The position numbers and the translations under genes are program-made. From an uncultured Candidatus Saccharibacteria bacterium (GTDB lineage: Bacteria > Patescibacteriota > Minisyncoccia > Phycocordibacterales > DSPV01): a stretch of DNA of 58,078 bases. The notes beneath the pieces are model-generated. The model was not told the DNA's origin, did no database searches, and saw only the letters and a program-made list of their open reading frames with translations. The DNA is taken from the NCBI GenBank assembly GCA_964617735.1, contig CAZTXT010000001.1, forward strand, positions 78,260 through 136,337. Reading direction: 5' to 3'. Position 1 is the stretch's first letter; the number at the start of each line of letters is the position of its first letter. Shown in pieces: positions 8,189 to 23,894 of the stretch.

Positions 8189-8231
8189 TAGCAATATTAA
8201 CTCCAATGTTGTAAACGATAATAAATCTACA

Positions 8232-8611: not shown

Positions 8612-8632
8612 ATGACGGGTGAAACCCGTCGT
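8612..8632. terminator. Hairpin between convergent genes
   Basis: GACGGGT-GAA-ACCCGTC. Confidence 0.5.
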
Positions 8633-8745
8633 CTTGAATTGGTCTACGGAATCGAAAGCCCCAGCGAGCAAAGGCGAGCGAGGCGGGTCGCAGGCGAGCC
8701 GAGCACGGCGAGACCAGTGACCGACTCCTCACGAGGGCAAAGAGT

Positions 8746-9015
8746 TTATTTCTTGACTGCTTTATTAACAAAGAGAACCAGACGGGATTTCATTCGCGAA
8801 GCAGCGTTCTTTTTTATATAATTGGTTTTTGCCGCTTTATCAATCGCCGCATAGGCCTGCGGGATGAGCTTAAGCGCCTCCTTGTGCTTCGTTTCCTTCA
8901 CTAGGTTCCGGATCTGTTTCTCGATAGCATCCATGGCATGCTTGCGGCGCAGATTGAAAACGCGCTTGCGCGCAGCTGAACGGATCGCTTTCTTCGCTGA
9001 ACTCGTAATTGCCAT
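8746..9015 (-). CDS. rpsT: 30S ribosomal protein S20
   Basis: MAITSSAKKAIR...AIDKAAK...IKKNAASRMKSRL. Confidence 0.96.
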   Translation of the reverse strand: MAITSSAKKAIRSAARKRVFNLRRKHAMDAIEKQIRNLVKETKHKEALKLIPQAYAAIDKAAKTNYIKKNAASRMKSRLVLFVNKAVKK

Positions 9016-9072
9016 AAGGACATCATCCTAACAGAAGTCGCTGGGCTTAGCAAATTCTGCTATGCTCTAGAC

Positions 9073-9645
9073 ATGATCGCAAAACTCACCGGCACTGTTT
9101 CGCATCGCGGCAGCGGTTTTGTTGTCCTCGACGCGGGCCCGGTCGGCTACAAAGTCTTCGTCAAAAACGCAACGATGGAGGAGATTGTGAAAGCAGGGAC
9201 ACAACCCGTAACCCTGCTGACCTACCTTGCGGTCAAAGAGAACGGGATGGACCTCTATGGATTCCTGCACCGCGAAACAATGGAATTCTTTGAACTTTTA
9301 CTGACCGTAACCGGCATCGGTCCCAAGTCGGCACTTGCGATACTTAATATCGCGCCCGTCCCGACACTCCAGTCGGCCATCGCCTCCGGCGATCCTTCGC
9401 AGTTGACCAAAACGACCGGCATCGGAACCAAGCGCGCCGAGCGCATCGTGATGGAACTTAAAGATAAATTGGAAGTCGGCGCGGGAGAACTCGCCGTGCA
9501 TCAAGATGCTTCCGACGTACTGGAAGCACTCAAGGCGCTCGGCTATTCGCAGAAAGAAGCGCGCGATGCTCTACAGAAGCTCCCTAAAACCGGAGGAACC
9601 GCGGAAGAGAAGATAAAACAGGCACTCAAAACGCTTGGGAAATAA
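9073..9645 (+). CDS. ruvA: Holliday junction branch migration protein RuvA
   Basis: MIAKLTG, LYGF, VTGIGPKSAL, GIGTKRAERI, ALKALGYS. Confidence 0.96.
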   Translation: MIAKLTGTVSHRGSGFVVLDAGPVGYKVFVKNATMEEIVKAGTQPVTLLTYLAVKENGMDLYGFLHRETMEFFELLLTVTGIGPKSALAILNIAPVPTLQSAIASGDPSQLTKTTGIGTKRAERIVMELKDKLEVGAGELAVHQDASDVLEALKALGYSQKEARDALQKLPKTGGTAEEKIKQALKTLGK

Positions 9646-9668
9646 GCGCAGTCTAACCATCAATCATT

Positions 9669-10475
9669 ATGAATTCAGCTGAATATTCTTCCTCCGAAAG
9701 ACGACAATTGCTCGATCGTTTTTATACCCTGCGGCGCAATCTTTCAGCCCCGCACCATAAGGCGTTCACTATGGCCCAGAGCCAGATGATGGTGAAAGAA
9801 AGAGATGCGGTATTAGATGAATACGCCAAGCGCTTACCTCTCGTCCCGTTGAGCCGTTGCCCGTTTTGCGCCGAGCCGCTCGAATATTCAATAGATGTGC
9901 AGGGACTTGATGGTCCTTGGTGGTTTAATGGGCCGATGGCGGAATTCCCGCAACCCAAATGCTGCACGCACTTTCGGGTTCTGCTCGGCGCGATGGATTT
10001 TCATTCGAATCGTCCGCTTGAGACCGAGCTGATACCCGAAGTGCTGCCCGGTCCTGGGGTTCCTTTTGTCGTGCCCCGACTCCTAGAAATACCGACGATG
10101 AAAACGGTGGTCTCCAGTTTCACTATACCTCCGAACTATATGGCTTATGCGATCGCCTATTTTAGCGAAAATCCCCTTCACGGCGCTTTATTGCACCAGC
10201 CTTGGGGACGTCAGGCCTACCAAGTCCTTGACGAGAATGGAAAATATGAGGGTTGGACTGCGGCCAACGATAAGATTGATTTTGACCTCGGGCCTTGGAT
10301 TGATAAAGGTTTGGTTCTCTGGGTCAACCCGGGCGATTCGACGTTAACTCTGCAGAATCGCCCGCCCTGCCCTTACGTCAATCTTCCCGGCGTTCGGGCA
10401 CCACAGAAAATCGTCCGCGGAGAACTTGAAACCATGCCCCTCCCTACCGGCAAACGGCTTCAACCTTTCGAATAG
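9669..10475 (+). CDS. Hypothetical protein with Cys motifs, just beyond the last CRISPR repeat
   Basis: 268-aa ORF with SRCPFC, GLDGPWW and KCCTH; not a typical CPR core gene. Confidence 0.75.
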   Translation: MNSAEYSSSERRQLLDRFYTLRRNLSAPHHKAFTMAQSQMMVKERDAVLDEYAKRLPLVPLSRCPFCAEPLEYSIDVQGLDGPWWFNGPMAEFPQPKCCTHFRVLLGAMDFHSNRPLETELIPEVLPGPGVPFVVPRLLEIPTMKTVVSSFTIPPNYMAYAIAYFSENPLHGALLHQPWGRQAYQVLDENGKYEGWTAANDKIDFDLGPWIDKGLVLWVNPGDSTLTLQNRPPCPYVNLPGVRAPQKIVRGELETMPLPTGKRLQPFE

Positions 10476-10496
10476 CAGAGCCATATAGGCATTCGG

Positions 10497-10531
10497 GTTG
10501 CACACCATCCTCTTCGCAACGTTACTGCAAG
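10497..10531 (-). repeat. Repeat R6 (leader-distal, degenerate, 35 bp)
   Basis: GTTGCACACCATCCTCTTCGCAACGT--TACTGCAAG: 4 substitutions and a 2-bp deletion versus consensus. Confidence 0.85.
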
Positions 10532-10633
10532 GCCTTCCTGCAGGCAATGCATTTTATAAGTGATTCAGAGAAGCTTCAGATGAAGAGCAGGCCTGTTCGG
10601 AAATCATCCGAACAACGATTCAAGCAATGTTAT

Positions 10634-10664
10634 GAAAGAAAAAGGCCAGCTCCTGCTGGCCTTT
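10634..10664 (-). terminator. Intrinsic terminator in spacer 5
   Basis: AAAGGCCAGC-TCCT-GCTGGCCTTT stem, T-rich tail on the - strand, downstream of ORF 10690-10899. Confidence 0.7.
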
Positions 10665-10689
10665 CGTGATTGCAGCACTCCAAACTTAC

Positions 10690-10899
10690 CTAAATACCAA
10701 CTTTAGCAAGCTCTTGGGGATTGCGGAGCGTGAGCAGCCGTGCTCGCGAAATATGACCCCTCGCCAACTTTTGAAGTGCTCGAAGTTCAGACTTCTCTAC
10801 AGCGGAAAGCACTGAAGACATCTTTTTGCGTAAAAGGGTTACTCGACGGGCATTCTGCCGTTTCCTGAACTTTGATGTACTACTAGACAAGGTTTGCAT
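10690..10899 (-). CDS. Small basic hypothetical protein (spacer 5 cargo)
   Basis: 69 aa, GAAAGGA SD upstream, terminator downstream. Confidence 0.6.
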   Translation of the reverse strand: MQTLSSSTSKFRKRQNARRVTLLRKKMSSVLSAVEKSELRALQKLARGHISRARLLTLRNPQELAKVGI

Positions 10900-11061
10900 A
10901 TATAATCCTTTCTAATTCAGATGATAAGGATTATTGAATAATTTGCAATGGAGTTATTGGAAGCAAATTCAGAGCGCATGTCAGAGAGGACACTTGCACG
11001 GGGCTTCAAACATAAGCAAGGCATTTCTTAACCTTAAAGAATAGGATTTCGAGGGAAAGTG

Positions 11062-11098
11062 GTTGCACACCATTCTTTTCGCGACGTAGTACTGTAAG
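11062..11098 (-). repeat. Repeat R5 (4 mismatches)
   Basis: GTTGCACACCATTCTTTTCGCGACGTAGTACTGTAAG. Confidence 0.92.
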
Positions 11099-11132
11099 CT
11101 TTTACCGTGCGGTCGCGAGGTAGTGGGCCTTG

Positions 11133-11429
11133 TTAAGAGGGCTTGATAATTCGAGCGCGACATGCGCCAAGAAGCGCCCCCAAGAGAAAGAAGATCGGCA
11201 CTCCAAGAGAAATTTCCAACCAATATGGGGGATAAAAATCAAGAATCTCATTAAGTGCCCAGAAAGGTATCCAGGGAAATGCCAAAGGAATGCACTCAAA
11301 TCCTAAACCGGTGTATCCGGGAACAAAAATGTGGTGCATGCAAGATTCGTATAGAGCGCCAGATATCAGCGAGCTAATTCCCGCAATTGCTCCTCCGCGC
11401 AGCCAAGGTGGCCAAAACTTCCAGTGCAT
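11133..11429 (-). CDS. Small membrane protein (spacer 4 cargo)
   Basis: MHWKFWPPWLRGG..., 98 aa, TM segments; start placed just after a TG-n-TATGAT extended -10. Confidence 0.65.
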   Translation of the reverse strand: MHWKFWPPWLRGGAIAGISSLISGALYESCMHHIFVPGYTGLGFECIPLAFPWIPFWALNEILDFYPPYWLEISLGVPIFFLLGALLGACRARIIKPS

Positions 11430-11435
11430 AAGGTT

Positions 11436-11465
11436 ATCATACCAAAGGTTGTTTATCATTGTCGA
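11436..11465 (-). promoter_or_regulatory. Putative sigma70 promoter inside spacer 4
   Basis: TCGACA-N18-TATGAT with TG extension, 6 nt before the ATG. Confidence 0.45.
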
Positions 11466-11521
11466 CAAGAGTGACTGAAAAGCCGATGCACTAAGCATCG
11501 GCTGTGTGGCTCACGACGCTA

Positions 11522-11558
11522 GTTGCACAATATCCTTTTCGCGACGTAGTACTGCAAG
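11522..11558 (-). repeat. Repeat R4 (consensus)
   Basis: Exact 37-bp match. Confidence 0.97.
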
Positions 11559-12061
11559 TTTACTCATATCTGGTTCTTTCTTTTGGGCGAGCGTGCACGT
11601 CGCCAGGCCATGTTTTTGGAGGTGGAGCCACACAACATCAATGCGGTGCGACTGAACCACGGTTGTGCAATAGTTGTAGCCGCGGACGGTCGTGCCAGGT
11701 TGGCTGAGCGCGTGGCGCGAATACAACCACCGAAGATAAAGATGGAAACGGGAAGAATCTGATCCGACTGAATGCTACAGAGACGGACAAGCAAAAACCC
11801 CAGAACACGGTAAGTTGCTCTGGGGAAGCACCTCGCCAGAAACCAAGTTCTGGGGCTGGGTGAGCGTTGGGGAAATCGGAAGCCCGACGCCATCCAGGAT
11901 TAAGTATAATTGTGGATTCTCGATCGTCAAACCTGGTAGTCTGGGAGTCCTGCGGGTTGAGGACGTTTTTATAAAAATGCATTTTTTGTGAAACAGAAAC
12001 GCCCACTTTGCCGTCTTTGTGAGTAGAGTTTCCGATAAAGTGCGGGAATTCTTCAACATGC

Positions 12062-12736
12062 ATGAAGCGAGAAATCGGCTGGGCGCTCGTGCGCCTTGCA
12101 AAAATGCGCCTCTCCCCGGACGCGTGGCATCACTGGGAGCAAGTGCGCAAAGACTGGGCAATGGTTGCGCGTTTTGTGAGCCATTGCCAAAAGGTAACAA
12201 CGGGATGCCACTGCAATCTCTGGGAGGAGGGCTGCCACTGCGAAGCGGAGGCTGAAGTCCTCGTCCAAGAGACCTTGGTTCGAATAGACACAAAGTTGTT
12301 GCCAAAATGCGAGACGATGGAAGTGTGGAGAATAGGTAATTACGTGGAAGAGATTGCGCGGAACGTGGCTTATGGTGAATTCGCGAAAGCTTCAGCGCAG
12401 AAACGTGGAGGTCGTAAAGGGAAAGAGGGGCGACACCAGCTTCCAGAGCGGATTTCGTATCCCGATGCGGAAGAAAGCGAAGACCAGCGGTTGAATCTTC
12501 CTGTAGTTGCCCTCCCTACGCAGGTTCAAACTGCTTCACTCAAAGAATTCGACCAAAAAGTGCGTCGGTTATATTACGATGGCGTAATCGATGACAGAGA
12601 GCTTGAGGTTTTGAGAGACCTCATGGAAGAGCGTACGCAACGCGAGATTCGAGATCGAAGGCGTATGAGCTTGAGCCGAGTTAACGCATGCTGTAAGAAG
12701 CTGCGGGAGATTCTGCGAATGCATTGGAGTTGGTAA
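12062..12736 (+). CDS. ECF-type RNA polymerase sigma factor-like protein
   Basis: Region 2-like AEVLVQETLVRI, KRGG motif, C-terminal region 4 HTH (RTQREIRDRRRMSLSRVN). Confidence 0.65.
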   Translation: MKREIGWALVRLAKMRLSPDAWHHWEQVRKDWAMVARFVSHCQKVTTGCHCNLWEEGCHCEAEAEVLVQETLVRIDTKLLPKCETMEVWRIGNYVEEIARNVAYGEFAKASAQKRGGRKGKEGRHQLPERISYPDAEESEDQRLNLPVVALPTQVQTASLKEFDQKVRRLYYDGVIDDRELEVLRDLMEERTQREIRDRRRMSLSRVNACCKKLREILRMHWSW

Positions 12737-12755
12737 TTCTCTTCAGCCAGAAAAT

Positions 12756-12784
12756 GCCGCCTGGTTCGAAAGGAACCGGGCGGC
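12756..12784. terminator. 12-bp stem-loop between the sigma and anti-sigma-like genes
   Basis: GCCGCCTGGTTC-GAAAG-GAACCGGGCGGC. Confidence 0.45.
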
Positions 12785-12799
12785 TTACTAATACTTGAA

Positions 12800-13090
12800 A
12801 TGAGCAACTTGAACGCGAAGTCAATAGGCACGGGAACAGTTTGTATTTCGGAAGATGATCTTCTGCTTTTCGTCAGCGAGAACTTCGCTGAAACAAAAAT
12901 GGGCGCGTATGTAATTGCGGAGCACTTAAACCAGTGCCGGAAATGCCGGGACCGGGAGGGTCGGATTCGGGCGCGTTTGCAACATTTATTAACAACCGTC
13001 GCACAGATGCCGAACTGGAAGTGGCTGGATAGCGAGCATTCCGTTTACCGAGAAAAAGGCTGGCTAAAACTCAAGAGGAAGGGCGCGTAA
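12800..13090 (+). CDS. Putative zinc-binding anti-sigma (zf-HC2/ZAS) domain protein
   Basis: EHLNQCRKCR matches HxxxCxxC; directly downstream of the ECF-like gene. Confidence 0.55.
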   Translation: MSNLNAKSIGTGTVCISEDDLLLFVSENFAETKMGAYVIAEHLNQCRKCRDREGRIRARLQHLLTTVAQMPNWKWLDSEHSVYREKGWLKLKRKGA

Positions 13091-13177
13091 AGGAAAGTGC
13101 GGAGCTGGAAGAAAGGGAGCCTGCTCCGGTTTCTCAGGGTGAGTCCGATTGAATTGCTTTCGTAGGACTTGTTCGGC

Positions 13178-13432
13178 TCACTTGACCCGCTTGGCTGCGA
13201 GTTCTGCCTCGTGTAGGACGGTTGAAAGTTCCAGGCGGAGCGCGCCCGAGATCCGAAGCAATGTTTCGAGCGATGGGTTCCGTTGCTCACTTTCGATAAG
13301 GCTGATCATGCCTTGGGAAAGACCAGACATTTCTGCCAGGCGGGTCATGGAAATGTTCTGCTCTTTCCGCTTTTCACGCAATATGCGGGCGACGTGCGAA
13401 CAAACGGATTCGCGATAGCCGATTTTTGTCAC
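13178..13432 (-). CDS. XRE-family HTH transcriptional regulator
   Basis: LREKRKEQNISMTRLAEMSGLSQGMISLIESEQRNPSLETL. Confidence 0.9.
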   Translation of the reverse strand: MTKIGYRESVCSHVARILREKRKEQNISMTRLAEMSGLSQGMISLIESEQRNPSLETLLRISGALRLELSTVLHEAELAAKRVK

Positions 13433-13464
13433 AGTTAAGGGCTACCAAAAAAATCCATTGACAA

Positions 13465-13489
13465 CGGACATTACTATAGTAATAGTCCG
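13465..13489. promoter_or_regulatory. Palindromic operator in the divergent promoter region
   Basis: CGGAC-ATTACTATAGTAAT-A-GTCCG with a perfect 14-bp core palindrome, 1 nt after TTGACA (13458-13463). Confidence 0.6.
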
Positions 13490-13491
13490 AT

Positions 13492-13734
13492 ATGTTCATT
13501 CGGCGTCTTGGCCCGGATCCGCACGCAAACGGGAATCGAACCTTTGCGGTGAAAGGGTGCCCTGATATTTTCGAGCTGGATGGTGGTGATTTCGCGGTTA
13601 TCGGCACGGACATTACTGCGGTGGCCGAGAGCAAATTGCCTCCTTCTGCCAGTTGCGGGGCTGACGAAAGGGTTGTTCGAATACCCCGGAAGACCCTTGT
13701 ATTAGCGAAACCAGACATACCCGACAAGATATGA
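13492..13734 (+). CDS. Small hypothetical protein (CPDIFEL...GDFAVIG motif)
   Basis: 80-aa ORF divergent from the XRE gene; well-formed protein-like sequence. Confidence 0.7.
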   Translation: MFIRRLGPDPHANGNRTFAVKGCPDIFELDGGDFAVIGTDITAVAESKLPPSASCGADERVVRIPRKTLVLAKPDIPDKI

Positions 13735-13767
13735 GCCGCCACTTGCTTTTCGTGTTAAAATGGGCCG

Positions 13768-14223
13768 GTGGAAAGCTGGCTTGCAAAAAACTGGTTCGAA
13801 GCCGTGAGCACAATCGGGATTGTTGCCAGTCTGTTATTTACCGCGCACTCGCTGCGCGCGGAGACAAACTCACGAAGGATCAGCAATTTGATTACGTTAA
13901 CGCACAATCATCGCGAAATTTGGAGCGAATTTTTCAAAAATCCGAAATTGGAGCGGATCCTTACCGGGCAGCCAACGATTTTGGAACGCCCGATCACAAT
14001 CGAAGAAGAAATATTGGTGAATCTGGTCATTCAGCAATTGCAGAGCGTGTTTTACGCCATATCGGACAAGCTAGTACTCAAGCCGGAACAATTGGGCACA
14101 GATGTAAGGGATTTTTTGTCGCTGCCGATCCCCCGCGCAGTTTGGGAGAAGAACAAAACTCTGCAAAATCGCGATTTCGTTTCATTCGTGGCGGAGCAGC
14201 TTCAACCTCGTCGCAGTGGTTGA
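13768..14223 (+). CDS. Hypothetical protein with N-terminal TM (DUF6082-like, tentative)
   Basis: 151 aa, one TM then a helical domain; GTG start. Confidence 0.65.
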   Translation: MESWLAKNWFEAVSTIGIVASLLFTAHSLRAETNSRRISNLITLTHNHREIWSEFFKNPKLERILTGQPTILERPITIEEEILVNLVIQQLQSVFYAISDKLVLKPEQLGTDVRDFLSLPIPRAVWEKNKTLQNRDFVSFVAEQLQPRRSG

Positions 14224-14293
14224 AGCGTGCAAGAAAGGGCTTTTGACTGACTAAAACCATACGGCACAGGGGAGGCAACATATCAGGTGTCAT

Positions 14294-14515
14294 TCACAAA
14301 TCGGCAACAAGATCGGACACTTTAACGTGTAACGCATCGGAGATGCGGAGTAAGGCATGAAGGCTGATCCATTTTTCGCCTCGCTCGATTTTGCCAAGAT
14401 AGACCGGGTGGAGGTTCGCCTGTTCTGCAAGGTTTTCCTGGGTAAGTTTTGCGTGTTTCCGATGCTTCCGAATTGCTTCACCGAGATTTCGTCTTCGTTG
14501 TTGAATGCGCGACAC
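14294..14515 (-). CDS. XRE-family HTH regulator
   Basis: IRKHRKHAKLTQENLAEQANLHPVYLGKIERGEKWISL. Confidence 0.9.
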   Translation of the reverse strand: MSRIQQRRRNLGEAIRKHRKHAKLTQENLAEQANLHPVYLGKIERGEKWISLHALLRISDALHVKVSDLVADL

Positions 14516-14706
14516 AGTCGTTTAGGAGAGCAAGAAGCGCAGGCGGAAAACACACCCCATAGGGGTTCATTTTGTTCTTGCATTTGGGAAGGGTTTTGTC
14601 AGTATCGGCATAGCGTGGGCGATGGTTCAGTCTATTGGCGGCGCTCCACTGGCTGAGTTTCCATCCTTCCGGGAGTTGCATTTAGAAGTCAGCAGAGAAC
14701 TTAATC

Positions 14707-15957
14707 ATGAAAACGAGTAGACCAATTGGGACTTCAGCGGGTCTTTTGATTCTGATAGTAGTGTGGTTTGCGCCGGGAGGACTTGCTCAAGTGAACAGTG
14801 GGAGTGACGGGCGTGATGGCCCACTCGATCCCGGAATATGCCCAGGCGGGGCGTGTAGTGTCGTCATCGACATGCACGATCATCCAGATGGGGTTTATCA
14901 ATATACTGCCGTTAATATGGCTCCTGGAGTTACTGTGACGTTTGTGCCAAATTCGAATAATACTCCGGTTGTTTGGTTGGTGCAGAGCAACTGTGTAATT
15001 AGCGGAGGCGCAACCGTCATTGTGACGGCACAAGGTGGGAGCGGTGGGTCAGGTGGGGCAGGAGGGCCCGGTGGATTTCGCGGAGGCAATGGAGGAACGC
15101 TTAGCGCTGGAGGAATGGGGCCTGGCGGGGGATTGGCGGGCGGCTACGTTGGCGGCACTGGATCATATGGAATGTTTGGCACGAATGCCGCGGGGACTAC
15201 TAATGGAGATGGAGCTATCTATGGAAATCAATTTCTGCTGCCCCTGGTTGGCGGTTCCGGTGGGGCTGGCTCAATGGGAAGTTGTAGCACCATCGCCTTT
15301 GGCGGCGGGGGCGGCGGGGGAGCGCTATTGATTGTCGCGTCCGGAAGAATCCTGCTGGATGGGAGTATCGAGGCATGCGGTGGTCCAGCATGCGGAGGAT
15401 TTTACGCCTGTCCTGGAGGATTCAGCACGAATATCGCGGGAGGTGATGGCAGCGGGGGGGCGGTGAGGCTAGTTGCCTCACAAATTCTTGGCAGCGGCAG
15501 CATCTATACCGGTCGCTCAGGAAGCTATTGCGGTGAGGCCAGTTTTGGAGGTTTAGGAAGAGTCAGACTTGACTCCCCGGATTTAAACTTCGGTGGAATA
15601 ATTACGGCTGTAGCAAGTCAAGGATTCCAGCCGATAATTATTCCTTCACAAGGGACAGGTGTTCAACTAGCGATTGCAAGCATTGGCGGAGTACCGGTTT
15701 CTGCGTCTCCAACTGGACAACTTGCAACTCCTGACGCTGTGCTCTCCAGTCAGCAGAGCAACCCTATTCCCATCGTTGTGAATTGCTCGAATATTCCGTT
15801 AAACACGCAGATCACGGTGGTAGTCAGGCCAGCTACTGGCCCGGCTGTAAGCGCGACAGGACTCAACAACACTGGGACGCTCTTGGCGAGCACGGCTACC
15901 GTTTTGCTTAATATGCCGCGAGGCGGGGGAATCATTTACGCAACTGCAGCAAACTAA
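14707..15957 (+). CDS. Secreted glycine-rich protein
   Basis: Signal peptide, SGSDGRDG, long G-rich tracts, C-terminal beta-sandwich-like region. Confidence 0.8.
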   Translation: MKTSRPIGTSAGLLILIVVWFAPGGLAQVNSGSDGRDGPLDPGICPGGACSVVIDMHDHPDGVYQYTAVNMAPGVTVTFVPNSNNTPVVWLVQSNCVISGGATVIVTAQGGSGGSGGAGGPGGFRGGNGGTLSAGGMGPGGGLAGGYVGGTGSYGMFGTNAAGTTNGDGAIYGNQFLLPLVGGSGGAGSMGSCSTIAFGGGGGGGALLIVASGRILLDGSIEACGGPACGGFYACPGGFSTNIAGGDGSGGAVRLVASQILGSGSIYTGRSGSYCGEASFGGLGRVRLDSPDLNFGGIITAVASQGFQPIIIPSQGTGVQLAIASIGGVPVSASPTGQLATPDAVLSSQQSNPIPIVVNCSNIPLNTQITVVVRPATGPAVSATGLNNTGTLLASTATVLLNMPRGGGIIYATAAN

Positions 15958-15965
15958 AACGCCGG

Positions 15966-17951
15966 ATGAGGTCTTCGACGCAACTTGGAATAGTTGCAAC
16001 CTTGCTCTTGAAATCGCTCTCGTTATGCGCAGACGAGGTTACTACAAACGCCATGTCGCCTATCGTGAGCTACCAATACCTTAATGCCGTGGATGAGCAG
16101 GGAACAACGCTGGCAAGTCCGATAGTTAGTTTCCAATTCCTGAGCTCATTGGGCGAGGCGGCAACGACAGTATTTAGCCGCATTGTGGGCTACCAGTATT
16201 TGGATTGGGCAGGCAATGACGCGTTACAACTGGAGAGCAGTGATCAGGTGAGCTATTACTATCAATTTCTAAACGTCCCGCCTCTCGTTATTATCCCTAC
16301 GAATCGCACGGCAACTGCCACAGAGGTCAGTCCTTCAGTTGTTCTCCCTGGCCCAGATCCTTGGCAACTCAAGACGTTCACAAATGGCATGCTTAGGACT
16401 AACGTGGCGCCTGATTCAAACTGGATGAGCGTTGTGCTGACCCATGGCTGGAACAGCAGCCCGGAGGCATGGGCAACGAACATGGCACAATTGATTTCTG
16501 CAAACGCTACAACATCGGCGAATATTTTAATTTGGGACTGGACGAGCGCTTCGCAGTCCACGCCATGCCTCTCATTGCAGGCGGATTTCGTTGGAGCGGC
16601 GCGACTGACACCTGACCAAGGATTCGCGTTAGCGATGGCATTGCGCTCGAAATTAGGAACAAATTATTCGCACCAGATTCATTTTATCGGGCACAGCCTT
16701 GGCGCTCTGGTAAACGGATTCGCCGCAATCTACCTCCATCACCACGGATTCGCTCCTACTAACACTCAAATAACAATGTTTGATGAAGCAGAAGTAGCAA
16801 CAGATCTGAGTTGCCCGGAACTCTTGAATGCAGTCCTGTTCAACCAGTGGAATCCTCTTTCGCCGAAGCCATACTATTGTCATCCCCTGCCGCGGCAATT
16901 CGCCTGGGCAGACAACTACATCACTGCGTTCGGGCTTCTGCATCCTGATGCGCACAACGTCATCCTTACGAATGGTTTCCCGGGCAATGCTGCGAACCTG
17001 ATAAACTTGGGTCAGAAGTTAGCTAATTTTCACAGTTACCCTTGCGATTGGTACGCCGAGACGGTTAGCAGTAACAATTCGGCGATGGGGCATCAGTGGT
17101 CGTTTGAGCAGGGCGGATTTTCGGGAGGGCGCGACACGAACACCGTCTTCCGTCAATCGTTTAATGGGTCGCTTTGGAATCTTGCGGAGTTGGATTATGC
17201 TGCTGGCAGCAATTACTTGGCCGGGCGATTTGAGAAGTATCGCGACGCCGTGAAGTATGCTGTTACTAATAAGTCTCCGAGCGCTATCGCCGCAAATGGA
17301 ATTGTGTTCGGCTTCGTGCTTCTTGGGCTTACATTTGACGGCTTCGTTTTGTACTTGCAAACCAGCGCTGCCAGTCCTCAAGTTTCTGAATTCCCCCGCC
17401 AGGGTTCCCACGGGCACGACGGTGGTGCGGGCGGGAACGGGAGCACGGGCGCATGTGCCTGGTTGAGGCTACCGATTCCTGCCGACGGAGTTTCCATCTC
17501 CTTTGATTTCAAGGTTGACGGCGATTGGCAGGATGATTCGCTGGCGGCGGCACTAAATGGAACAAACTTACTTCTACTTGCCGCCAGCCAAGTCGAGACC
17601 AACATTGTGCTCAATAGCGGCCTCATTGATATAAGGTCATATGCTGGCCAAACGAACGAACTCTTTGTCGGAATCGTTGGAGGCACCTCCACGAATGCTC
17701 TGCTGACCGTGGGGAACGTTGCGATCTACACAGCCGCAGTGCCGTCATTGCACGGGGAAGTAAGCGGAAGGGATTTCAACATTTCGTGGCCGCTCACGGC
17801 ACAGAACTTCAACTTGGAATCTACAACCAATCTGGAGCTGATAAATTCTTGGACGGCAGTCACCAACACCCCGGCCATAGTCAATTTCCAGAACATAGTC
17901 ACGAATGACGCTTCCACGGATAGTAGGTTTTACCGTCTAAGAAAGTATTAA
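15966..17951 (+). CDS. Secreted alpha/beta-hydrolase (lipase-like) with C-terminal Verrucomicrobia-style appendage
   Basis: VLTHGW, nucleophile elbow GHSLG; C-terminus ISWP...FNLESTTNL...W...VTN...RFYRLRK. Confidence 0.75.
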   Translation: MRSSTQLGIVATLLLKSLSLCADEVTTNAMSPIVSYQYLNAVDEQGTTLASPIVSFQFLSSLGEAATTVFSRIVGYQYLDWAGNDALQLESSDQVSYYYQFLNVPPLVIIPTNRTATATEVSPSVVLPGPDPWQLKTFTNGMLRTNVAPDSNWMSVVLTHGWNSSPEAWATNMAQLISANATTSANILIWDWTSASQSTPCLSLQADFVGAARLTPDQGFALAMALRSKLGTNYSHQIHFIGHSLGALVNGFAAIYLHHHGFAPTNTQITMFDEAEVATDLSCPELLNAVLFNQWNPLSPKPYYCHPLPRQFAWADNYITAFGLLHPDAHNVILTNGFPGNAANLINLGQKLANFHSYPCDWYAETVSSNNSAMGHQWSFEQGGFSGGRDTNTVFRQSFNGSLWNLAELDYAAGSNYLAGRFEKYRDAVKYAVTNKSPSAIAANGIVFGFVLLGLTFDGFVLYLQTSAASPQVSEFPRQGSHGHDGGAGGNGSTGACAWLRLPIPADGVSISFDFKVDGDWQDDSLAAALNGTNLLLLAASQVETNIVLNSGLIDIRSYAGQTNELFVGIVGGTSTNALLTVGNVAIYTAAVPSLHGEVSGRDFNISWPLTAQNFNLESTTNLELINSWTAVTNTPAIVNFQNIVTNDASTDSRFYRLRKY

Positions 17952-17981
17952 CTCACCGCAGGGGCTCAGCGGCAACCGCCG

Positions 17982-18392
17982 CTAGTCGTGGAAGATGGTA
18001 GCCAAAAACGGTATGGCGACCAAAGAGACAAAGAGATCAAGCACGACGGCTAGAAAGATGCCGAAGGCAATTAGTTTTAGGATTATTTGGAACTGGGCTC
18101 GCGGCGGCTTCTGGTTGATTGTGGCTTCTGTGGATGGTTGATGTGAAGTGCTTGGCCTGGATCTTGTCTGATCTTGGGTTGGACGCAGGAATAGGAGAAT
18201 CAGTATAGAGCCGACAATTAGAATACCTGATAGAAGGCCACCCCGTATCATAACCTGCATTTCTGCCATGATATCGTCGGCAGGTTGCGGCATAAAGACG
18301 ACATATGACAGTATTATAGCGCCAACGAAGGAGCCTAACGTGATGGCAACGTAAGAAATGTAGCGAATAATGTGAATCAAGGCGTTTTTCAT
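17982..18392 (-). CDS. Three-TM hypothetical membrane protein
   Basis: 136-aa ORF with hydrophobic segments. Confidence 0.6.
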   Translation of the reverse strand: MKNALIHIIRYISYVAITLGSFVGAIILSYVVFMPQPADDIMAEMQVMIRGGLLSGILIVGSILILLFLRPTQDQTRSRPSTSHQPSTEATINQKPPRAQFQIILKLIAFGIFLAVVLDLFVSLVAIPFLATIFHD

Positions 18393-18529
18393 ATGTCTTG
18401 TTGTCTTGTTGCGCAGGGGTGACCATTATTGTACCCGAAATTAGTTTCATAAAAAAGCCGACGTTGTGGACGTCGGCTGTGTTGGCTCAAAGCATCCGTT
18501 GTAGGAGGCCTGTGAGCAGCAAAATAATA

Positions 18530-19171
18530 TTAGGCAAGTCGAGCACGTGCCGTGCGACAGTGGTGCTCGTCCAGTTCAATGAGGACGAACTTGCGATGAG
18601 CAGCCCTGGCGGCAACACCAGTGGTGCCCGAACCTGCAAACGGATCTAGCACAATATCGTCTGGTTGCGAGAATGCTTCGATCAGCGGCAAAAGACAAAT
18701 CACCGGTTTTTCCATTGGGTGAAACTCATTTCCTGTGTATTCCCAATCGAAAACGTCATCTGGCGGATAGGCCGGCCTCAGCGGTTTGCCTTTGGCCAGG
18801 AGGAATGCTACTTCGTGATAGCTGCGAGTGTAGCCCTCGCGTGAACAATAGTCTTTCACCCAGATCAGATGACTGACCGGACGAAACCCCACCTGTTTCC
18901 AAACGTGCATAAACCGATCAATCCAAGGCCAGCCATAAAAGCTGGCGCAAAATCGGTCGGGCTTAAGCACGCGATGAATCTCGTGAAATGCCGGCCGCAA
19001 CCAATGATTGTTGTCATCGTTGGCGCAACGCCGACCGTCGCGAGCAACATACCTGGTTAGGTAAGGTGGATCGGTGAGCACTAAGTCAACACTTGCGTCG
19101 GGCATCGTGCGCAGAACGGAAATGCAATCGCCGTGAATGACCTGGTTAAGGAAGCTATCGATGGTTTGCAT
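18530..19171 (-). CDS. Orphan DNA methyltransferase (N6-A/N4-C, beta class)
   Basis: Motif IV TDPPY precedes motif I DPFAGSGTT; HPMEKP. Confidence 0.92.
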   Translation of the reverse strand: MQTIDSFLNQVIHGDCISVLRTMPDASVDLVLTDPPYLTRYVARDGRRCANDDNNHWLRPAFHEIHRVLKPDRFCASFYGWPWIDRFMHVWKQVGFRPVSHLIWVKDYCSREGYTRSYHEVAFLLAKGKPLRPAYPPDDVFDWEYTGNEFHPMEKPVICLLPLIEAFSQPDDIVLDPFAGSGTTGVAARAAHRKFVLIELDEHHCRTARARLA

Positions 19172-19185
19172 GTTAAGCCTCCTTT

Positions 19186-19473
19186 TCAGTAATCCTCAGG
19201 CAACAGCACTGTTGTGACAGACCGATCAGCTTCGGTGATAAGCCAGAACTTCGTGCCGTTCTGTGCGTGATATACGGAAAGCAAACGGAAGCCTTCTTTG
19301 AGTGAAAGGTCATTTTCGCTTCTGTCATCTTCACTCACGTCGCCCCAATCGCCAGCCTGGTGCCGTTGAATGGCGACCAGGATGTCTTGGTTTGATACCT
19401 TTCCAAGCGCATTTGGGGTGGCCACAATCCTGCCAAGCCGTAACCGAGCAATGGGTGGTTTGTGAGCGCTCAT
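19186..19473 (-). CDS. Plasmid/ICE-associated conserved small protein
   Basis: LGRIVATPNAL...RHQAGDWG...RLLSVY...WLITEADRSVTTVLLPEDY, a family I recall from mobile-element leading regions. Confidence 0.75.
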   Translation of the reverse strand: MSAHKPPIARLRLGRIVATPNALGKVSNQDILVAIQRHQAGDWGDVSEDDRSENDLSLKEGFRLLSVYHAQNGTKFWLITEADRSVTTVLLPEDY

Positions 19474-19799
19474 AAGCCGAAGTCCTCCATTGCCGAGGCA
19501 ATGGCGTCTTCGTCATCGCCAAGGATTTCCACCAAACCTGCTTTTAACGCTGCCTTGTCGAGGTCGGGTCTGGCCCCCTTGGGACAAGCAGGGCAGCGGA
19601 TAACATCGAGAATTGAGGCACCGAACTCATAACCGGCCGCTTTGAACTGCTCGCGATACCGCCCCGAAAGCCGTTTGGCGACGGGTAGGGAGCGCCAAGC
19701 TTCGGCTTCAGCATGGTCGACGGTCGTTTCGAAAATGGCATCGTGCCGGAGGTGATAGACATCCCACGGCTCATTGCATGATGAACAATGAACATCCAT
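19470..19799 (-). CDS. Hypothetical protein with CxxC pairs
   Basis: MDVHCSSCNEPWD...CPAC; overlaps the next gene by 4 nt. Confidence 0.7.
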   Translation of the reverse strand: MDVHCSSCNEPWDVYHLRHDAIFETTVDHAEAEAWRSLPVAKRLSGRYREQFKAAGYEFGASILDVIRCPACPKGARPDLDKAALKAGLVEILGDDEDAIASAMEDFGL

Positions 19800-19814
19800 A
19801 CGCGTGCTCCTTTC

Positions 19815-20490
19815 TCAGTTGTAGAAGTAACCAAGCTGTCGGAGCGAGCAATGGTTGGGATTGCCAATTATGACATGATCGAGGACCTCAATTTTAAGAA
19901 GTTGGCCCGCGCGAATGAGGTCTCGCGTGACTTTGATGTCTGCCTCTGATGGTTGCGGCTCACCGCTAGGATGATTGTGCATGAGCACAACGGCCGCTGC
20001 CGCCGTGATTATTGCGACCCGGAACACCTCCCGTGGATGGACGAGGATTGTATCGAGCGTGCCGATGCTCACCATCTGATGCCCTTTCACACGCCGGCGT
20101 GTGTTAAGCATGAGGACAGCGAAACATTCGCAGTCCGGCATGAAATACGGATTTGTGGCGATATGGGACCGCCAATAATCGGCAGCGTTCTCTGGAGTTT
20201 CGCACAAATGCATTCCCTCCGGCATGGGGCATTCGCGCAATGTGATTACTTTGTATTCCTTGGCCGGCGGGATCGGTTTGGGATCTGCCGGGGCCTCCTG
20301 CAATTCGAGAGTTGAGGCGGGAACGATTGCATACTTATCCCTGGGGTCATTTCGGGATCGGTGCGTTGGCGCACCGCAAGGATGTTGCCAGCAACGGCGC
20401 CCGGCATTCCAATGGAAGCCAAGATCTTTCAGTTTATCGCGGATTTCCTTGAGTGGCGCGACCGAAAATTCGAGCCACACCCATTTGCCG
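19815..20490 (-). CDS. RadC/JAB-domain protein, 5'-truncated at the repeat
   Basis: VHPREVF, HNHPSG...PSEADI, LDHVII; the frame runs into repeat R3 with no native ATG. Confidence 0.85.
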
Positions 20491-20527
20491 GTTGCACAAT
20501 ATCCTTTTCGCGACGTAGTACTGCAAG
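20491..20527 (-). repeat. Repeat R3 (consensus)
   Basis: Exact 37-bp match. Confidence 0.97.
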
Positions 20528-20591
20528 AACAATCACCGATTTGCTGCAATCTCGATAACGGATAGGAAAGGGCCTGGCAAAAGTTGCAAGC

Positions 20592-20621
20592 AAAAAGGCA
20601 ACGAGAAGAACGCGTTGCCTT
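20592..20621 (-). terminator. Intrinsic terminator in spacer 2
   Basis: AAGGCAACG/CGTTGCCTT 9-bp stem with a T run on the - strand. Confidence 0.55.
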
Positions 20622-20651
20622 CGTGTGAGTCCTCTGCGAACCCTATCTGCA

Positions 20652-20828
20652 TCAGGAAATGCCGAACTTCGCAATCGTAAGCCGGAAGTTTCGTGAGGGC
20701 TTTACCCTGGCATGATTCCGAAGGGATAGATTCAAGGATTCCGAGATCCTGCGGACCTTTTCTGCCATACTTTGGACCTCTCGAATCTCTGACAGAGTCA
20801 AGGATTGTTTTGAGTGTAGTTTATTCAT
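20652..20828 (-). CDS. Small basic hypothetical protein (spacer 2 cargo)
   Basis: MNKLHSKQSLTLSEIREVQ..., 58 aa, followed by a terminator. Confidence 0.35.
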   Translation of the reverse strand: MNKLHSKQSLTLSEIREVQSMAEKVRRISESLNLSLRNHARVKPSRNFRLTIAKFGIS

Positions 20829-21197
20829 AATGGTAAGCCAACAAAGCAAGTGAGAGGCCGTCTCTAAAGGGTTGCCGTACGCAATTATAGACATTTGAAT
20901 GAACCGTGTTCTCCAAAGAGGAACTTGGACAGGCCTTCTGCATCCTAGACATTCCTCCTTTGCTTTGCTGATGGTACCAAATTAGTCCGATTCTGTAAAT
21001 CGGCTTTGGGGTATTGTGCCCATCACAGAAAGCAGGCACACTTTGTCCCCGCCTGGTACAGCTTTGAGACAAACAGACTTGGAACCGCTCAAAGAAGACC
21101 CCGAATCCTTAATTGGCGGAAGAAGGAGTAAAGGGCTTCCACAGCCGCCGCTGCGCCAACTTAGACGTGATAGGTATTGCGTGGTTCCGAACTGACA

Positions 21198-21234
21198 GTT
21201 GCACAATATCCTTTTCGCGACGTAGTACTGCAAG
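21198..21234 (-). repeat. Repeat R2 (consensus)
   Basis: Exact 37-bp match. Confidence 0.97.
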
Positions 21235-21335
21235 GTAAGGGGCCTTTCGGGGGCTGTTATGTTGACGATCAGATCAAATTTGCCGTCACCGTCCCACGGG
21301 CGGTTGACACGCCTGAAAATCTGAAGAGGACCATA

Positions 21336-21629
21336 ATGGTTGAGAGCTTGAAGGCTCAATTGGAATCCTTGCGTGAATCACGACGCGAGAGGGATGAAGC
21401 CGCCGAGATTATCAGGAATGCTTTTAACGAGGTGAGTACCATCAACAAGGTGGCGAATGCGTTTAATACTATGCATCACCAAATGAAAAAGGAGAAAGAA
21501 GAGGCGGCACGGAAAGCAGCTCAAGAAGAACGATTGACCCCTGAGCAAACAGAGGAATTTGTAAAGGAGGCCCTGCAACAAGTTGATAAGCTCTTCCTCG
21601 CCTTGACGGACCGATACTTGCCTAAATAG
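21336..21629 (+). CDS. Coiled-coil hypothetical protein (spacer 1 cargo)
   Basis: GAGGA SD then ATG 21336; 97 aa, charged and helical. Confidence 0.65.
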   Translation: MVESLKAQLESLRESRRERDEAAEIIRNAFNEVSTINKVANAFNTMHHQMKKEKEEAARKAAQEERLTPEQTEEFVKEALQQVDKLFLALTDRYLPK

Positions 21630-21657
21630 AAAAAAGGGGTGCCAGTGGGCACCCCTT
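21630..21657. terminator. Terminator between convergent spacer 1 ORFs
   Basis: AAGGGGTGCC-AGTG-GGCACCCCTT with an adjacent A run. Confidence 0.7.
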
Positions 21658-21691
21658 GTCGCGCGACTGAGCCAAGAATTCCGACCCGCAC

Positions 21692-22132
21692 TTATAACCT
21701 CATTGTGGGCGACGGCGACCCACCGCAGAGCTGTTCGAATTCCTTAGCGGCTTCGTCACCTACCTCCTGTTCGGATGGCGGCTCAACGTAAATCTCGGCG
21801 CAAAGCCGTTGGAAGGTTTCTTGGTAAGACCTGAAGAACTCGGGGTGGCGCCGCATACCGTTTCGCAGCAGATCCTTGATGAATCGGCAACAGGCCTGTT
21901 GCTGCTGATGGTGAAGTTCGCAAATCTTACTTACATGCGAAAAACTCACATGACTCTCCAACTGACGGCGGGCTTCTTCCCTGCAGACAGAGGAGACGAG
22001 CTCACCAAATTGACGCCGTTCGTCCAGCGACAAACGAGGGAGCGTGAGTAAGAAGAGGCGCTTCCACGCAACTTCTCCCTGACTGTCATTTGAGTTCGGG
22101 GTCAGTAGCGCTAATGATTGGGAACTAAGCAT
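21692..22132 (-). CDS. Hypothetical helical protein (spacer 1 cargo)
   Basis: GAAAGGA SD then ATG 22132 (MLSSQ...); 146 aa. Confidence 0.65.
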   Translation of the reverse strand: MLSSQSLALLTPNSNDSQGEVAWKRLFLLTLPRLSLDERRQFGELVSSVCREEARRQLESHVSFSHVSKICELHHQQQQACCRFIKDLLRNGMRRHPEFFRSYQETFQRLCAEIYVEPPSEQEVGDEAAKEFEQLCGGSPSPTMRL

Positions 22133-22250
22133 AGTTGAATTCCTTTCGTTGGCTGATTGGCAGTGCAGAACTCCGCGTACACCATGCACGTGGCGTTCTG
22201 TCTGCCAACCGAGGTTTCTCTGCTTAGTACCGCCCCCTCCATCTTTCGCC

Positions 22251-22278
22251 ATTATATCACGCCTATAATCTATGTCAA
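22251..22278 (-). promoter_or_regulatory. Consensus sigma70 promoter inside spacer 1
   Basis: TTGACA-N16-TATAAT on the - strand. Confidence 0.75.
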
Positions 22279-22524
22279 GAGTATTACAGCCTGACTAAAA
22301 AGCAGAGATTTGCTTGCTGACAGTCTGGGCAGAAGGCTAACTGTCCGGTCTGCGGCCATGCACGACATTCATTCGCGGATGGAGTTTCGCGTCAGCCTGT
22401 TCGTCCTCGCCGGTGAGAACCAACAATGCGATTGGGTAGAAGCGTTCATCATCAAAAACGGAGTGTGCGTCGCGCGGACCGGATTACCATCGTTCTTAAT
22501 ATGACGCATAAGCACGCTGATCGA

Positions 22525-22561
22525 GTTGCACAATATCCTTTTCGCGACGTAGTACTGCAAG
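22525..22561 (-). repeat. Repeat R1 (leader-proximal, consensus)
   Basis: Exact 37-bp match, 38 bp from the cas2 stop. Confidence 0.97.
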
Positions 22562-22599
22562 AGCCAGCAATTTAAGGATTGCCTTCTGAATTTACTTGA
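22562..22599 (-). promoter_or_regulatory. Putative minimal CRISPR leader (38 bp)
   Basis: The only sequence between the cas2 stop and the first repeat. Confidence 0.5.
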
Positions 22600-22881
22600 C
22601 TAAACGATCTCGTATGGTTTTCTATTGCGTGTAATGGCATAGGAAACGTCGTGCCGTTTGAAACAATCTGCGCACAAGACAACTACATGGTACTTATCAT
22701 TGCGACCGTTGAAAATATTTTTCATTTTATTTTCAAATTCAAGTCGTTCGTTTGTACTTATTGGCCCCGAAAATAAATTGCGATGAAGCGAAATAAGTCC
22801 ATAATCAGCACACACAGTCCGCGCCCGTTCTGCCTTTCGAGCATTCTTTGCAAACCATAGTACTATAGAACCCGAATTCAT
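22600..22881 (-). CDS. cas2: Cas2-like protein (divergent)
   Basis: 93 aa directly after cas1; DYGL...LFSG...D...VVLCADCFK aligns by eye with Cas2; the N-terminal YDI motif is replaced by WFA. Confidence 0.75.
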   Translation of the reverse strand: MNSGSIVLWFAKNARKAERARTVCADYGLISLHRNLFSGPISTNERLEFENKMKNIFNGRNDKYHVVVLCADCFKRHDVSYAITRNRKPYEIV

Positions 22882-22892
22882 CCTATTGATAT

Positions 22893-23894
22893 TTATAAGA
22901 GCACAGAGAAATCTATCGACAAGTAGGAGGTCTGATTTCCCAGAAAACATCGACTCAAAACACGGTTCTGCTCTAAAATGACATCTCTTAGCGTTCGGCG
23001 TTTCCCCTTCCAAAATATCCTCTGGTTCAGACGATTTAACACACCTTCAACTACCTTGGCCTTCCCTTCTGGAGAAAGACGGTATTCATCTTTGCTTATT
23101 TTTTCAAAATCACTACGCTTGCCGAGTTTTTTCTCTATGAAGAGCGGAATGATCGCGGAATCCACGATTGGAACTCGAAATTCCTCAACAAGGTCAAGCA
23201 CCAAAGCCGGTTTACCGTAGCGGTCGGAGTGGTATAAACCCAGATAGGGATCGAGTCCGACATAGAGGCACGCGCGTTCGACTTCATTATAGAGAATTCC
23301 GTATCCGTAGTTGAGTGCGCTGTTGAATTTGTCACGTCCTTGTGGAACACGACCAGGAAATTTATGCAGACGTTTCAAACAGTCCCAGTATTTATCTGCT
23401 ATAAAACCCTCAGTCCCCAGTAGCTGGTTACGGGCTTTTTCTCCACCTGGGATTCCCCAGATATTCTGTAGTAAAGTCTCGGCTTGCACGATTTCTTTTC
23501 CAAAATCCTTGCCGTATTTTGCCGAGAGGAATTTAAGGTATGTGATCTGATTGCGACATTTTCCATAAACAAATTGTTTTGCCAACTCGAATGATCGAAT
23601 CGGATCACTAGATACGACAAGTTGACCTCGACGCATTGTTGCTAACCCCTTCGAATCGCTCGAGAAAATTCTTCCAACAGGTTTTCCGAATGACCCGAGA
23701 TAAACAATGTCTACTTCATGCTCGATAGCGAGCCGGACGGCATGCGTAGAAATAGAAGAGGGTCGCAGGATTACAATTTTATTCAGACGCCGGATGGGAT
23801 ATTCCTTGCGCTTTTTCGTTTTCGGAAATCGCAGAGCGATACGTTCACCAGTCGATCCTATAAAGGTGCCGTATGTATCAATGAGTAGGTCCAT
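22893..23894 (-). CDS. cas1: CRISPR-associated integrase Cas1
   Basis: LLGTEG, NSALNYGYGILY, GLDPYLGLYH, LVLDLVEEFR; catalytic E/H/E present. Confidence 0.96.
   Translation of the reverse strand: MDLLIDTYGTFIGSTGERIALRFPKTKKRKEYPIRRLNKIVILRPSSISTHAVRLAIEHEVDIVYLGSFGKPVGRIFSSDSKGLATMRRGQLVVSSDPIRSFELAKQFVYGKCRNQITYLKFLSAKYGKDFGKEIVQAETLLQNIWGIPGGEKARNQLLGTEGFIADKYWDCLKRLHKFPGRVPQGRDKFNSALNYGYGILYNEVERACLYVGLDPYLGLYHSDRYGKPALVLDLVEEFRVPIVDSAIIPLFIEKKLGKRSDFEKISKDEYRLSPEGKAKVVEGVLNRLNQRIFWKGKRRTLRDVILEQNRVLSRCFLGNQTSYLSIDFSVLL

Follow-up and report, generated by a model that had tools for sequence, protein, structure and literature searches.

We analyzed a 58,078-nt stretch of DNA (hereafter the window; contig CAZTXT010000001.1, positions 78,260 to 136,337) from an uncultured Candidatus Saccharibacteria bacterium, in which six co-oriented direct repeats separated by gene-sized inserts lie next to cas2 and cas1. 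The genome, 763,480 bases in 3 contigs with a completeness rating of 99.99%, is as small as those of its relatives. ruvA is directly followed by folC in 5/5 same-genus genomes, and the 14.3 kb found at 9646-23989 here are therefore an insertion. This island holds an open reading frame (ORF) of 268 amino acids (aa), the six repeats with their five inserts, cas2 and cas1 (Table 1). It is absent from the five same-genus genomes, where ruvA was the only match at the DNA level.

The Cas1 protein is a clear family member, and none of the subtype-specific Cas1 models exceeded its own cut-off. Cas2 falls short of the Pfam cut-off of 23.8 bits, yet a gene of 94-111 aa occupies the same position in all relatives. 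A whole-genome search for Cas9, the Cas3 core, the Cas12/TnpB TNB domain and Csm1/Cas10 returned nothing over cut-off (Cas13, Cas7 and Cas5 were not searched), and no canonical CRISPR array was found in the genome. Between 9000 and 24500 we detected only short inverted pairs at chance level and no terminal inverted repeats, and among the island ORFs scanned there was no tyrosine or serine recombinase in any of the inserts S1 to S5.

The 37-nt consensus repeat, GTTGCACAATATCCTTTTCGCGACGTAGTACTGCAAG, has four exact copies on the forward strand (R1 to R4), where 0 are expected in shuffled sequence. The two remaining copies, R5 and R6, are variants. Repeat positions are given in forward-strand numbering unless marked rc (reverse complement). 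Relative to the consensus, R5 carries A9C, T10C, C13T and C34T, while R6 carries A9C, T10C, T16C and G22A and has also lost the AG at positions 27-28. The AT>CC change at positions 9-10 is thus common to R5 and R6, and the other five differences are private. The first-pass annotation had described four identical leader-proximal repeats, a copy at 11062 with 4 substitutions, a copy at 10497 with 4 substitutions plus a 2-bp deletion, and the AT>CC shared by the latter two; exact matching and alignment bear out each of these observations. No seventh copy, even a degenerate one, was recovered by a low-stringency gapped scan of window positions 9000-23000, nothing above noise resembled a more decayed repeat distal to R6 or within S3, and blastn-short found no copy elsewhere in the 763-kb genome. 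Start-to-start distances between the repeats, from R6 to R1, are 565, 460, 8969, 707 and 1327 bp. The units between them (530, 423, 8932, 670 and 1290 bp from S5 to S1) bear genes and are not spacers of ~35 nt. Folding of the repeat is indistinguishable from that of shuffles on either strand (z = -0.22 and -0.10), and neither the repeat nor its variants form a significant RNA structure.

Table 1. Features of the ruvA-folC island, listed from cas1 towards the trailer (window coordinates).
Feature	Coordinates	Strand	Evidence or description
cas1, 333 aa, full length	22893..23894	-	Pfam Cas_Cas1 9.1e-67; TIGR00287 4.8e-68
cas2, 93 aa from ATG, divergent	22600..22881	-	Pfam CRISPR_Cas2 E 3.7e-4, 21 bits
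Leader, 38 nt, cas2 stop to R1, ends GGCT at repeat	22562..22599	-	conservation in ~20 loci
R1, leader-proximal repeat	22525..22561	-	exact match
Cassette S1, 1290 bp, nearest leader	21235..22524	.	between R2 and R1
R2, identical repeat	21198..21234	-	exact match
Cassette S2, 670 bp	20528..21197	.	between R3 and R2
R3, identical repeat	20491..20527	-	exact match
Cassette S3, 8932 bp, multi-gene mobile-element-like block	11559..20490	.	domain matches
RadC in S3	19815..20549	-	domain match
N6/N4 DNA methylase in S3	18530..19171	-	domain match
Lipase-like gene in S3	15966..17951	+	domain match
ECF-sigma-like gene in S3	12062..12736	+	domain match
R4, first identical repeat from trailer side	11522..11558	-	exact match
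Cassette S4, 423 bp	11099..11521	-	open 121-aa frame 11498-11133
R5, penultimate repeat, 37 nt	11062..11098	-	alignment; matched by Logan contig L052
Cassette S5, 530 bp	10532..11061	-	small transcription unit, GC 0.44
R6, terminal, most decayed repeat, 35 nt	10497..10531	-	sequence alignment
Trailer-side block with 268-aa ORF (9669-10475), no assigned family	9646..10496	+	beyond last repeat, inside island

Conservation across ~20 loci extends over the 45 nt upstream of the first repeat, within which lie an A-rich block, a CCTT block and, abutting the repeat, (G/T)CT. Sequences upstream of R2 to R6 are unrelated to this leader. Because the leader is conserved only next to cas2, the leader end is the cas2 side, where the first-pass annotation had placed it; the ~38-nt conserved stretch with its GCT/C junction between the cas2 stop and R1 agrees with that placement. 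The array has its leader end at high and its trailer end at low window coordinates. The two mutated copies are the two farthest of six from the leader, an arrangement with a chance probability of 1/15.

The same layout recurs in related loci. We found 218 Cas1 relatives at E<=1e-60, the best of them 75% identical, with loci from metagenome-assembled genomes (MAGs) of Paceibacterota, Parcubacteria, Adlerbacteria and Saccharibacteria. Wherever a locus has enough DNA, a repeat of the same 37-nt family starts ~340 bp after the cas1 stop, directly following cas2 and a short leader. Nine related arrays are multi-copy: three repeats with inserts of 1262 and 1482 nt (L004 = L017); two repeats with a single insert of 4242 nt (L006), 1337 nt (L007), 7672 nt (L020) or 183 nt (L024); four repeats with inserts of 590-7010 nt (L043) or 673-2279 nt (L053); eight repeats with inserts of 140-4007 nt (L044 + L048); and ten repeats with inserts of 254-5947 nt (L045 + L049). 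Many other related loci hold a solo repeat only. The inserts of the relatives, 140-7672 bp overall, contain ordinary or mobile-element genes and gene fragments. The lineage is rare, with this type of Cas1 in 3/61 close relatives (this genome counted) and in 2/400 other genomes sampled from the class. At 90% identity the Cas1 studied here is a singleton cluster among 15 billion proteins, as are the 268-aa ORF and the S1 ORF. A metagenome scan with a degenerate repeat pattern gave 0 matches, and public data contained no strain-level relative.

Ten contigs with an identical Cas1 (P0005; L058-L067), from assemblies of different samples, each carry one solo repeat followed by the same trailer and so offer no first cassettes to compare across samples. 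The empty module seems stable. Two different upstream neighbors of the cas1 module occur among these contigs, either an abutting tyrosine-recombinase gene or an unrelated gene, and the module may move as a unit.

Independent assemblies of the locus were sought through exact protein look-ups of Logan contigs. One contig (L052, run SRR12313480, 992 nt) equals window 10559-11550 at 100% identity. Besides the whole of S4 and the greater part of S5, it reproduces R5 complete with its four substitutions. The contig ends after 29 nt of R4, the point at which a k=31 graph is expected to branch if the repeat is multi-copy. Further Logan contigs match window 8159-10172 (SRR12313480) and 8159-10155 (SRR12313479) at 100% identity. 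None of the Logan contigs found covers R6. The earlier argument that unique degenerate repeats are unlikely products of assembly collapse holds for R5, which is reproduced in an independent assembly.

The direction of the changes was read from a table comparing the first repeats of 19 related arrays with R1-R4, R5 and R6, to which L053 was added afterwards. Both variants are changed at position 9, where the lineage base is A (19/20), and at position 10, which is variable (T in 12/19). R5 alone is changed at positions 13 (C in 17/19) and 34 (C in 15/19), and R6 alone at positions 16 (T in 19/19) and 22 (G in 19/19). R1-R4 have the commonest lineage base at every position where R5 or R6 differs, and keeping the lineage bases they mark R5 and R6 as decayed copies, not ancestral variants. 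All R5 and R6 differences are derived, except possibly that at position 10. The changes strike rc positions 16 and 22, which are invariant in the 19 arrays, and rc position 29, where G occurs in L053 only. Three of the four R6 substitutions fall at lineage-conserved bases, as relaxed constraint predicts, and both fossil copies have drifted unconstrained. Repeat length is 37 nt in 20/20 related repeats and 35 nt in R6.

The L053 array (L053:11396-15723, Cas1 65% identical) consists of four identical repeats with three inserts. Within the TTGTGC motif of its repeat, one T that is present in each of the 19 other related arrays is replaced by G, the same change as at position 9 of R5 and R6. A further lineage difference is found at rc position 19, which is G (GTCGCGAAAAGG) in all six copies of the present array and A in 19/19 tabulated related arrays. 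Old and new copies share this G, and the change therefore predates the whole array.

Decay within the array is step-like and, among the arrays compared, peculiar to this one. Counted as events, the changes per copy from R1 to R6 are 0, 0, 0, 0, 4 and 5. None of the 37 repeats in the nine related multi-copy arrays is variant (0/37), including the terminal copies of the complete 8- and 10-repeat arrays. We therefore reject polarized decay as a lineage-wide rule, and the first-pass expectation that trailer repeats degenerate stands for the two most distal copies here and not for the lineage. A survey of 56,343 CRISPR arrays reported that terminal repeats mutate much more than internal ones and that mutated terminal repeats accompany retained distal spacers (PMC12839519; also PMC11472070). 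Spacer deletions are far commoner than mutations and depend on repeat alignment (PMC12839519). Cassettes between identical repeats would be readily lost by repeat-repeat recombination, which would keep the identical part of the array young and make most arrays look recent, and the mutated R5 and R6 would no longer recombine with other repeats, leaving S4 and S5 frozen. If R4 had drifted at the R5 rate, the probability of finding 0 changes in it would be 0.015; with all events pooled P = 0.05-0.09, and constraint on R1-R4 is only hinted at. We infer that the array is oldest at its distal (trailer) end.

The shared AT>CC bears on how the array grew. Two copies with 4 random substitutions each would share at least 2 identical changes with P = 0.0066, and an identical adjacent pair with P = 0.0004; AT>CC is therefore common to R5 and R6 by descent or by copying. 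When Cas1-Cas2 integrates DNA, it splits the target repeat, and each of the two daughter copies is then filled in. With insertion only at the leader end the repeats have the genealogy (R6,(R5,(R4,(R3,(R2,R1))))), in which a state present in R5 and R6 alone must be ancestral. C9 is derived, 19/20 related arrays having A, which makes R5 and R6 either sisters or a pair in which one copy converted the other. One or more steps were then not additions at the leader, unless the proximal part was exchanged afterwards. Parsimony counts 3-4 changes on the ladder tree, against 2 when R5 and R6 are grouped as sisters. The first-pass proposal that cassettes were added sequentially from the cas2 side consequently fails as stated, its strict form being contradicted by the derived state of the shared AT>CC.

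On balance, and with modest conviction, we favor R5 and R6 as trailer-end fossil repeats of a leader-polarized, kilobase-spacer array in which R5 and R6 are sister copies. The array was putatively built by a stand-alone Cas1-Cas2 integrase of a Patescibacteria lineage, inserting hundreds to thousands of bases at a time. A distal repeat would first have mutated from AT to CC, the CC repeat would have been duplicated when S5 entered there, away from the leader, and R5 and R6 would both have decayed further. Among three possible histories we rank off-leader insertion first because it needs the fewest events. Streptococcus thermophilus provides documented cases of off-leader ('ectopic') acquisition (PMC5338259, PMC7999890). 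Integration into a CC-type repeat may still be possible, since L053 has G at the position-9 equivalent in four working repeats.

Several points weigh against R5 and R6 as sister-copy fossils. With none of the 37 related repeats degenerate, the array could have an unusual history. The polarity statistic (1/15) is weak on its own, the relative-rate case for constraint on R1-R4 is marginal, and R6 is known from one assembly only. There is no clean compositional age gradient, S5 being less host-like than S4. Finally, no sequence like the leader end precedes R5 or R6, which leaves an off-leader landing there unexplained.

The best surviving alternative keeps the canonical mechanism for every insertion. 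An early leader-proximal repeat would have been of the CC type, S5 (and S4) would have been added to CC-type repeats by strict leader-end growth, and the cas1-cas2-leader-repeat end would then have been exchanged by recombination with an AT-type array of a closely related strain, or have reverted, before S3 to S1 were added. Such a replacement would explain the sharp step between R4 and R5, the G of L053 at the equivalent position is compatible with a growing array, and recombination is active in the genome, as seen in S1 and its chromosomal copy (a 428-nt identical core with flanks 7-13% diverged). Against this, it requires a double reversion to exactly AT, or a crossover with ~27 nt of repeat-side homology; neither a CC-type array nor a sister strain was found in the collections searched, and 3-4 changes are needed on the repeat tree, versus 2 for the sister-copy history. 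We regard replacement of the proximal end as unlikely.

Short-tract gene conversion could instead have copied AT>CC between R5 and R6, 565 bp apart, after sequential growth, the change having arisen a single time in one of them when both had long been in place. The shared change is one adjacent dinucleotide among otherwise private differences, conversion-like exchange between dispersed copies is present in the genome (S1), and the up to 10 identical repeats over 18 kb in relatives could partly reflect homogenization. The two repeats, however, have no more than ~35 nt in common, interrupted by several mismatches, a length that meets the usual minimum for homologous exchange at best, and their flanks share nothing; involvement of R4, or a private change carried along, would also be expected. 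Conversion is in our view improbable.

We give still less credence to entry of the inserts as repeat-bearing mobile elements or circular DNA recombining with array repeats, much as a CRISPR repeat serves prophages as attB, in which case R5 and R6 would be hybrid or imported and not decayed. Prophage integration into CRISPR repeats is documented (bioRxiv 10.1101/2020.10.09.333658), S3 carries RadC and a DNA methylase, and ArdC, RadC and ligase genes occur in related cassettes. Yet no cassette of the array contains a tyrosine or serine recombinase, and inserts go down to 140-530 bp with no mobility genes. The repeat was found nowhere else in the genome nor in the metagenome scan, and the module is always cas1-cas2-leader-repeat, even with a single repeat (the ten P0005 contigs and L005). 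The variant bases, moreover, are in no related array except for the G of L053 at rc position 29. Sequencing or assembly error, conceivable for a MAG-type assembly whose R6 has a single assembly behind it, is very improbable, given that a separate Logan assembly shows all four R5 substitutions, that the nine differences are confined, unlike random error, to two 37-nt stretches of an otherwise clean 674-kb contig, that collapsing identical repeats cannot generate unique variants, and that the variants have no 31-mer in common with R1-R4 and are therefore easier, not harder, to assemble correctly.

The captured DNA is heterogeneous. On the reverse strand of S5 we identified a promoter-like site (10948-10921), a 69-aa ORF (10899-10690) and a terminator with an 11-bp stem (10665-10640), and the 69-aa ORF was also called independently on L052. 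The 121-aa frame of S4 looks, from its sequence, like a membrane protein and has no family match; the 268-aa ORF has no Pfam or NCBIfam match. Composition relative to the genome (z under a 3rd-order Markov model) is -1.5 for S1, -2.1 for S2, -3.0 for S3, -0.74 for S4, -1.65 for S5 and -0.6 for the trailer block, S3 being the least host-like and S4 close to the host. There is no monotonic trend from S1 to the trailer block, and composition was rejected as an age clock.

Nucleotides 354-1121 of S1 (window 21588-22355) have a 95.7%-identical copy at C1:576797-577567 (771 bp; L068:4798-5568), 476 kb away and in the opposite orientation. The identity is mosaic: a 428-nt core is free of mismatches, and its two flanks differ at 15 of 206 nt and at 18 of 134 nt, a pattern that suggests recent exchange (gene conversion) between the cassette and the chromosomal copy. 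In the chromosomal copy the ORF no longer has its ATG and is interrupted by a stop at codon 11. At the boundary of the S1 homology, C1:577565-577601 (minus strand) reads CCACTTACTGCAAG and then CTCTTCC. Abutting the copied segment there are the final 9 nt of the array repeat (10 nt in comparison with the R6 variant), and the site matches the repeat at 20/37 positions, a score reached at only 2e-4 of genome positions. One possibility is that an orphan repeat, now nearly erased, lies here beside a separate capture of the S1 source DNA; another is chance.

Cassettes of related arrays contain similar material. The C-terminal 26 residues of a 95-aa ORF in S3 (19186-19473, minus strand) are 85% identical to DNA at L024:1693-1770, in a match that begins 5 nt after repeat 2 of the L024 array (Cas1 62% identical), and the two arrays, in different organisms, have thus sampled related mobile DNA. 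The largest cassette of another related array (L049:9907-15853) encodes ArdC-N, RadC, DNA ligase and DUF1281. Such gene sets, like the RadC and DNA methylase of S3, occur in the leading regions of conjugative plasmids, and the captured DNA may often be incoming conjugative DNA.

Two further repeats were observed elsewhere in the window. At 28112-28359 a gene for a lysine transfer RNA (tRNA-Lys; 28112-28184, minus strand) is adjoined by two or three tandem tRNA-like units of 74 nt; the units at 28180-28253 and 28254-28327 are 84% alike, and 28163-28210 resembles 28312-28359. Neither ARAGORN nor Rfam calls the tandem units tRNA, and they may be integration remnants at a tRNA gene. At 30856-31316 there is a 127-nt direct repeat, 87% identical, with its copies 334 nt apart, in and just upstream of a 323-aa ORF (30924-31895).

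In an array of gene- to kilobase-sized units the decayed repeats are the only internal clock available. They point to real time depth, the distal repeats being ~11% diverged and the four others unchanged, and to a history that is not a simple stack, because the two oldest repeats read as sister copies. Patescibacteria genomes are believed to rely on DNA acquired from hosts and neighbors. If confirmed, the sister-copy history would bear on target choice by a Cas1-Cas2 integrase that has no ruler and on the fixation of captured DNA in tiny Patescibacteria genomes. For a biochemical test the locus supplies defined substrates, namely the wild-type repeat, R5, R6 and a repeat with T>G as its sole change. 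A more far-reaching and doubtful possibility is that this Cas1-Cas2, having no length ruler and not being strictly tied to the leader, inserts kilobase DNA at any repeat, making such arrays time-layered archives. Repeat mutations would then lock old cassettes, and decay would make captured foreign DNA permanent in a minimal symbiont genome, while the array would stay fluid wherever its repeats are identical, gaining units and losing them by recombination; the remnant at C1:577565-577601 could in that case be a fully locked, almost erased unit.

The locus shares with CRISPR arrays its co-oriented, near-identical direct repeats within the ~23-55 nt range, the adjacent cas1-cas2 and leader, and degeneracy at the trailer end, where only the two farthest repeats are mutated. 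It differs in its units of 423-8932 bp, in place of regular short spacers (~21-72 nt), and in the derived C9 shared by the two oldest repeats, which departs from strict leader-end growth. The searches run revealed no effector and no units of the size of CRISPR RNA, as a complete CRISPR-Cas immune system would have. As in known degenerate terminal CRISPR repeats, mutation affects the copies most distant from leader and cas genes and spares the leader-proximal ones, and terminal mutation goes with retention of the oldest units (PMC12839519, PMC11472070). In canonical cases the units are 25-70 nt long; here, moreover, two successive decayed repeats have a derived change in common, and the terminal repeats of sister arrays in the same lineage are fully intact. 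Decay density is ~110 or more changes per 1000 nt here versus subtype averages of 13-95 per 1000 nt in the survey (PMC12839519).

Ectopic acquisition at S. thermophilus CRISPR1 and CRISPR3 provides a precedent in which insertion at an internal or distal repeat duplicates that repeat, as would make R5 and R6 sisters (PMC5338259, PMC7999890). Those cases belong to type II-A systems with 30-nt spacers, while the present array is known from sequence alone. Ectopic acquisition is usually guided by a leader-like motif at the spacer end, and no such motif precedes R5 or R6. Stand-alone adaptation modules likewise have cas1-cas2, a leader and a repeat with no interference genes found in the genome, but they do not share the kilobase inserts of this array.

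Integrons resemble the locus in having ordered captured segments beside an integrase gene, with integrase-proximal insertion preferred and position reflecting age. The island ORFs scanned, however, include no IntI tyrosine recombinase or Phage_integrase domain, the repeats are identical direct 37-mers with no hairpin potential (z about 0) and not imperfect palindromic attC sites, and the captured DNA consists of arbitrary fragments and multi-gene blocks, not single promoterless ORFs. Prophages or other elements inserted in a CRISPR repeat also place foreign kilobases between two repeat copies (10.1101/2020.10.09.333658), but here the inserts have no integrase, many are too short for elements, and length marks each unit of the array rather than a single exception in a normal array. 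Casposons have in common a Cas1-family integrase that handles kilobase DNA; Cas1 here is instead paired with Cas2, a leader and direct repeats, with no terminal inverted repeats, and the island proteins scanned showed no polymerase domain, family B included. In the literature searched we found no description of kilobase spacers with Cas1-Cas2. Trailer-end repeat degeneracy is thus a known phenomenon, and what is new, and undescribed in that literature, is an adaptation-only array of kilobase units that recurs across a Cas1 lineage of Patescibacteria.

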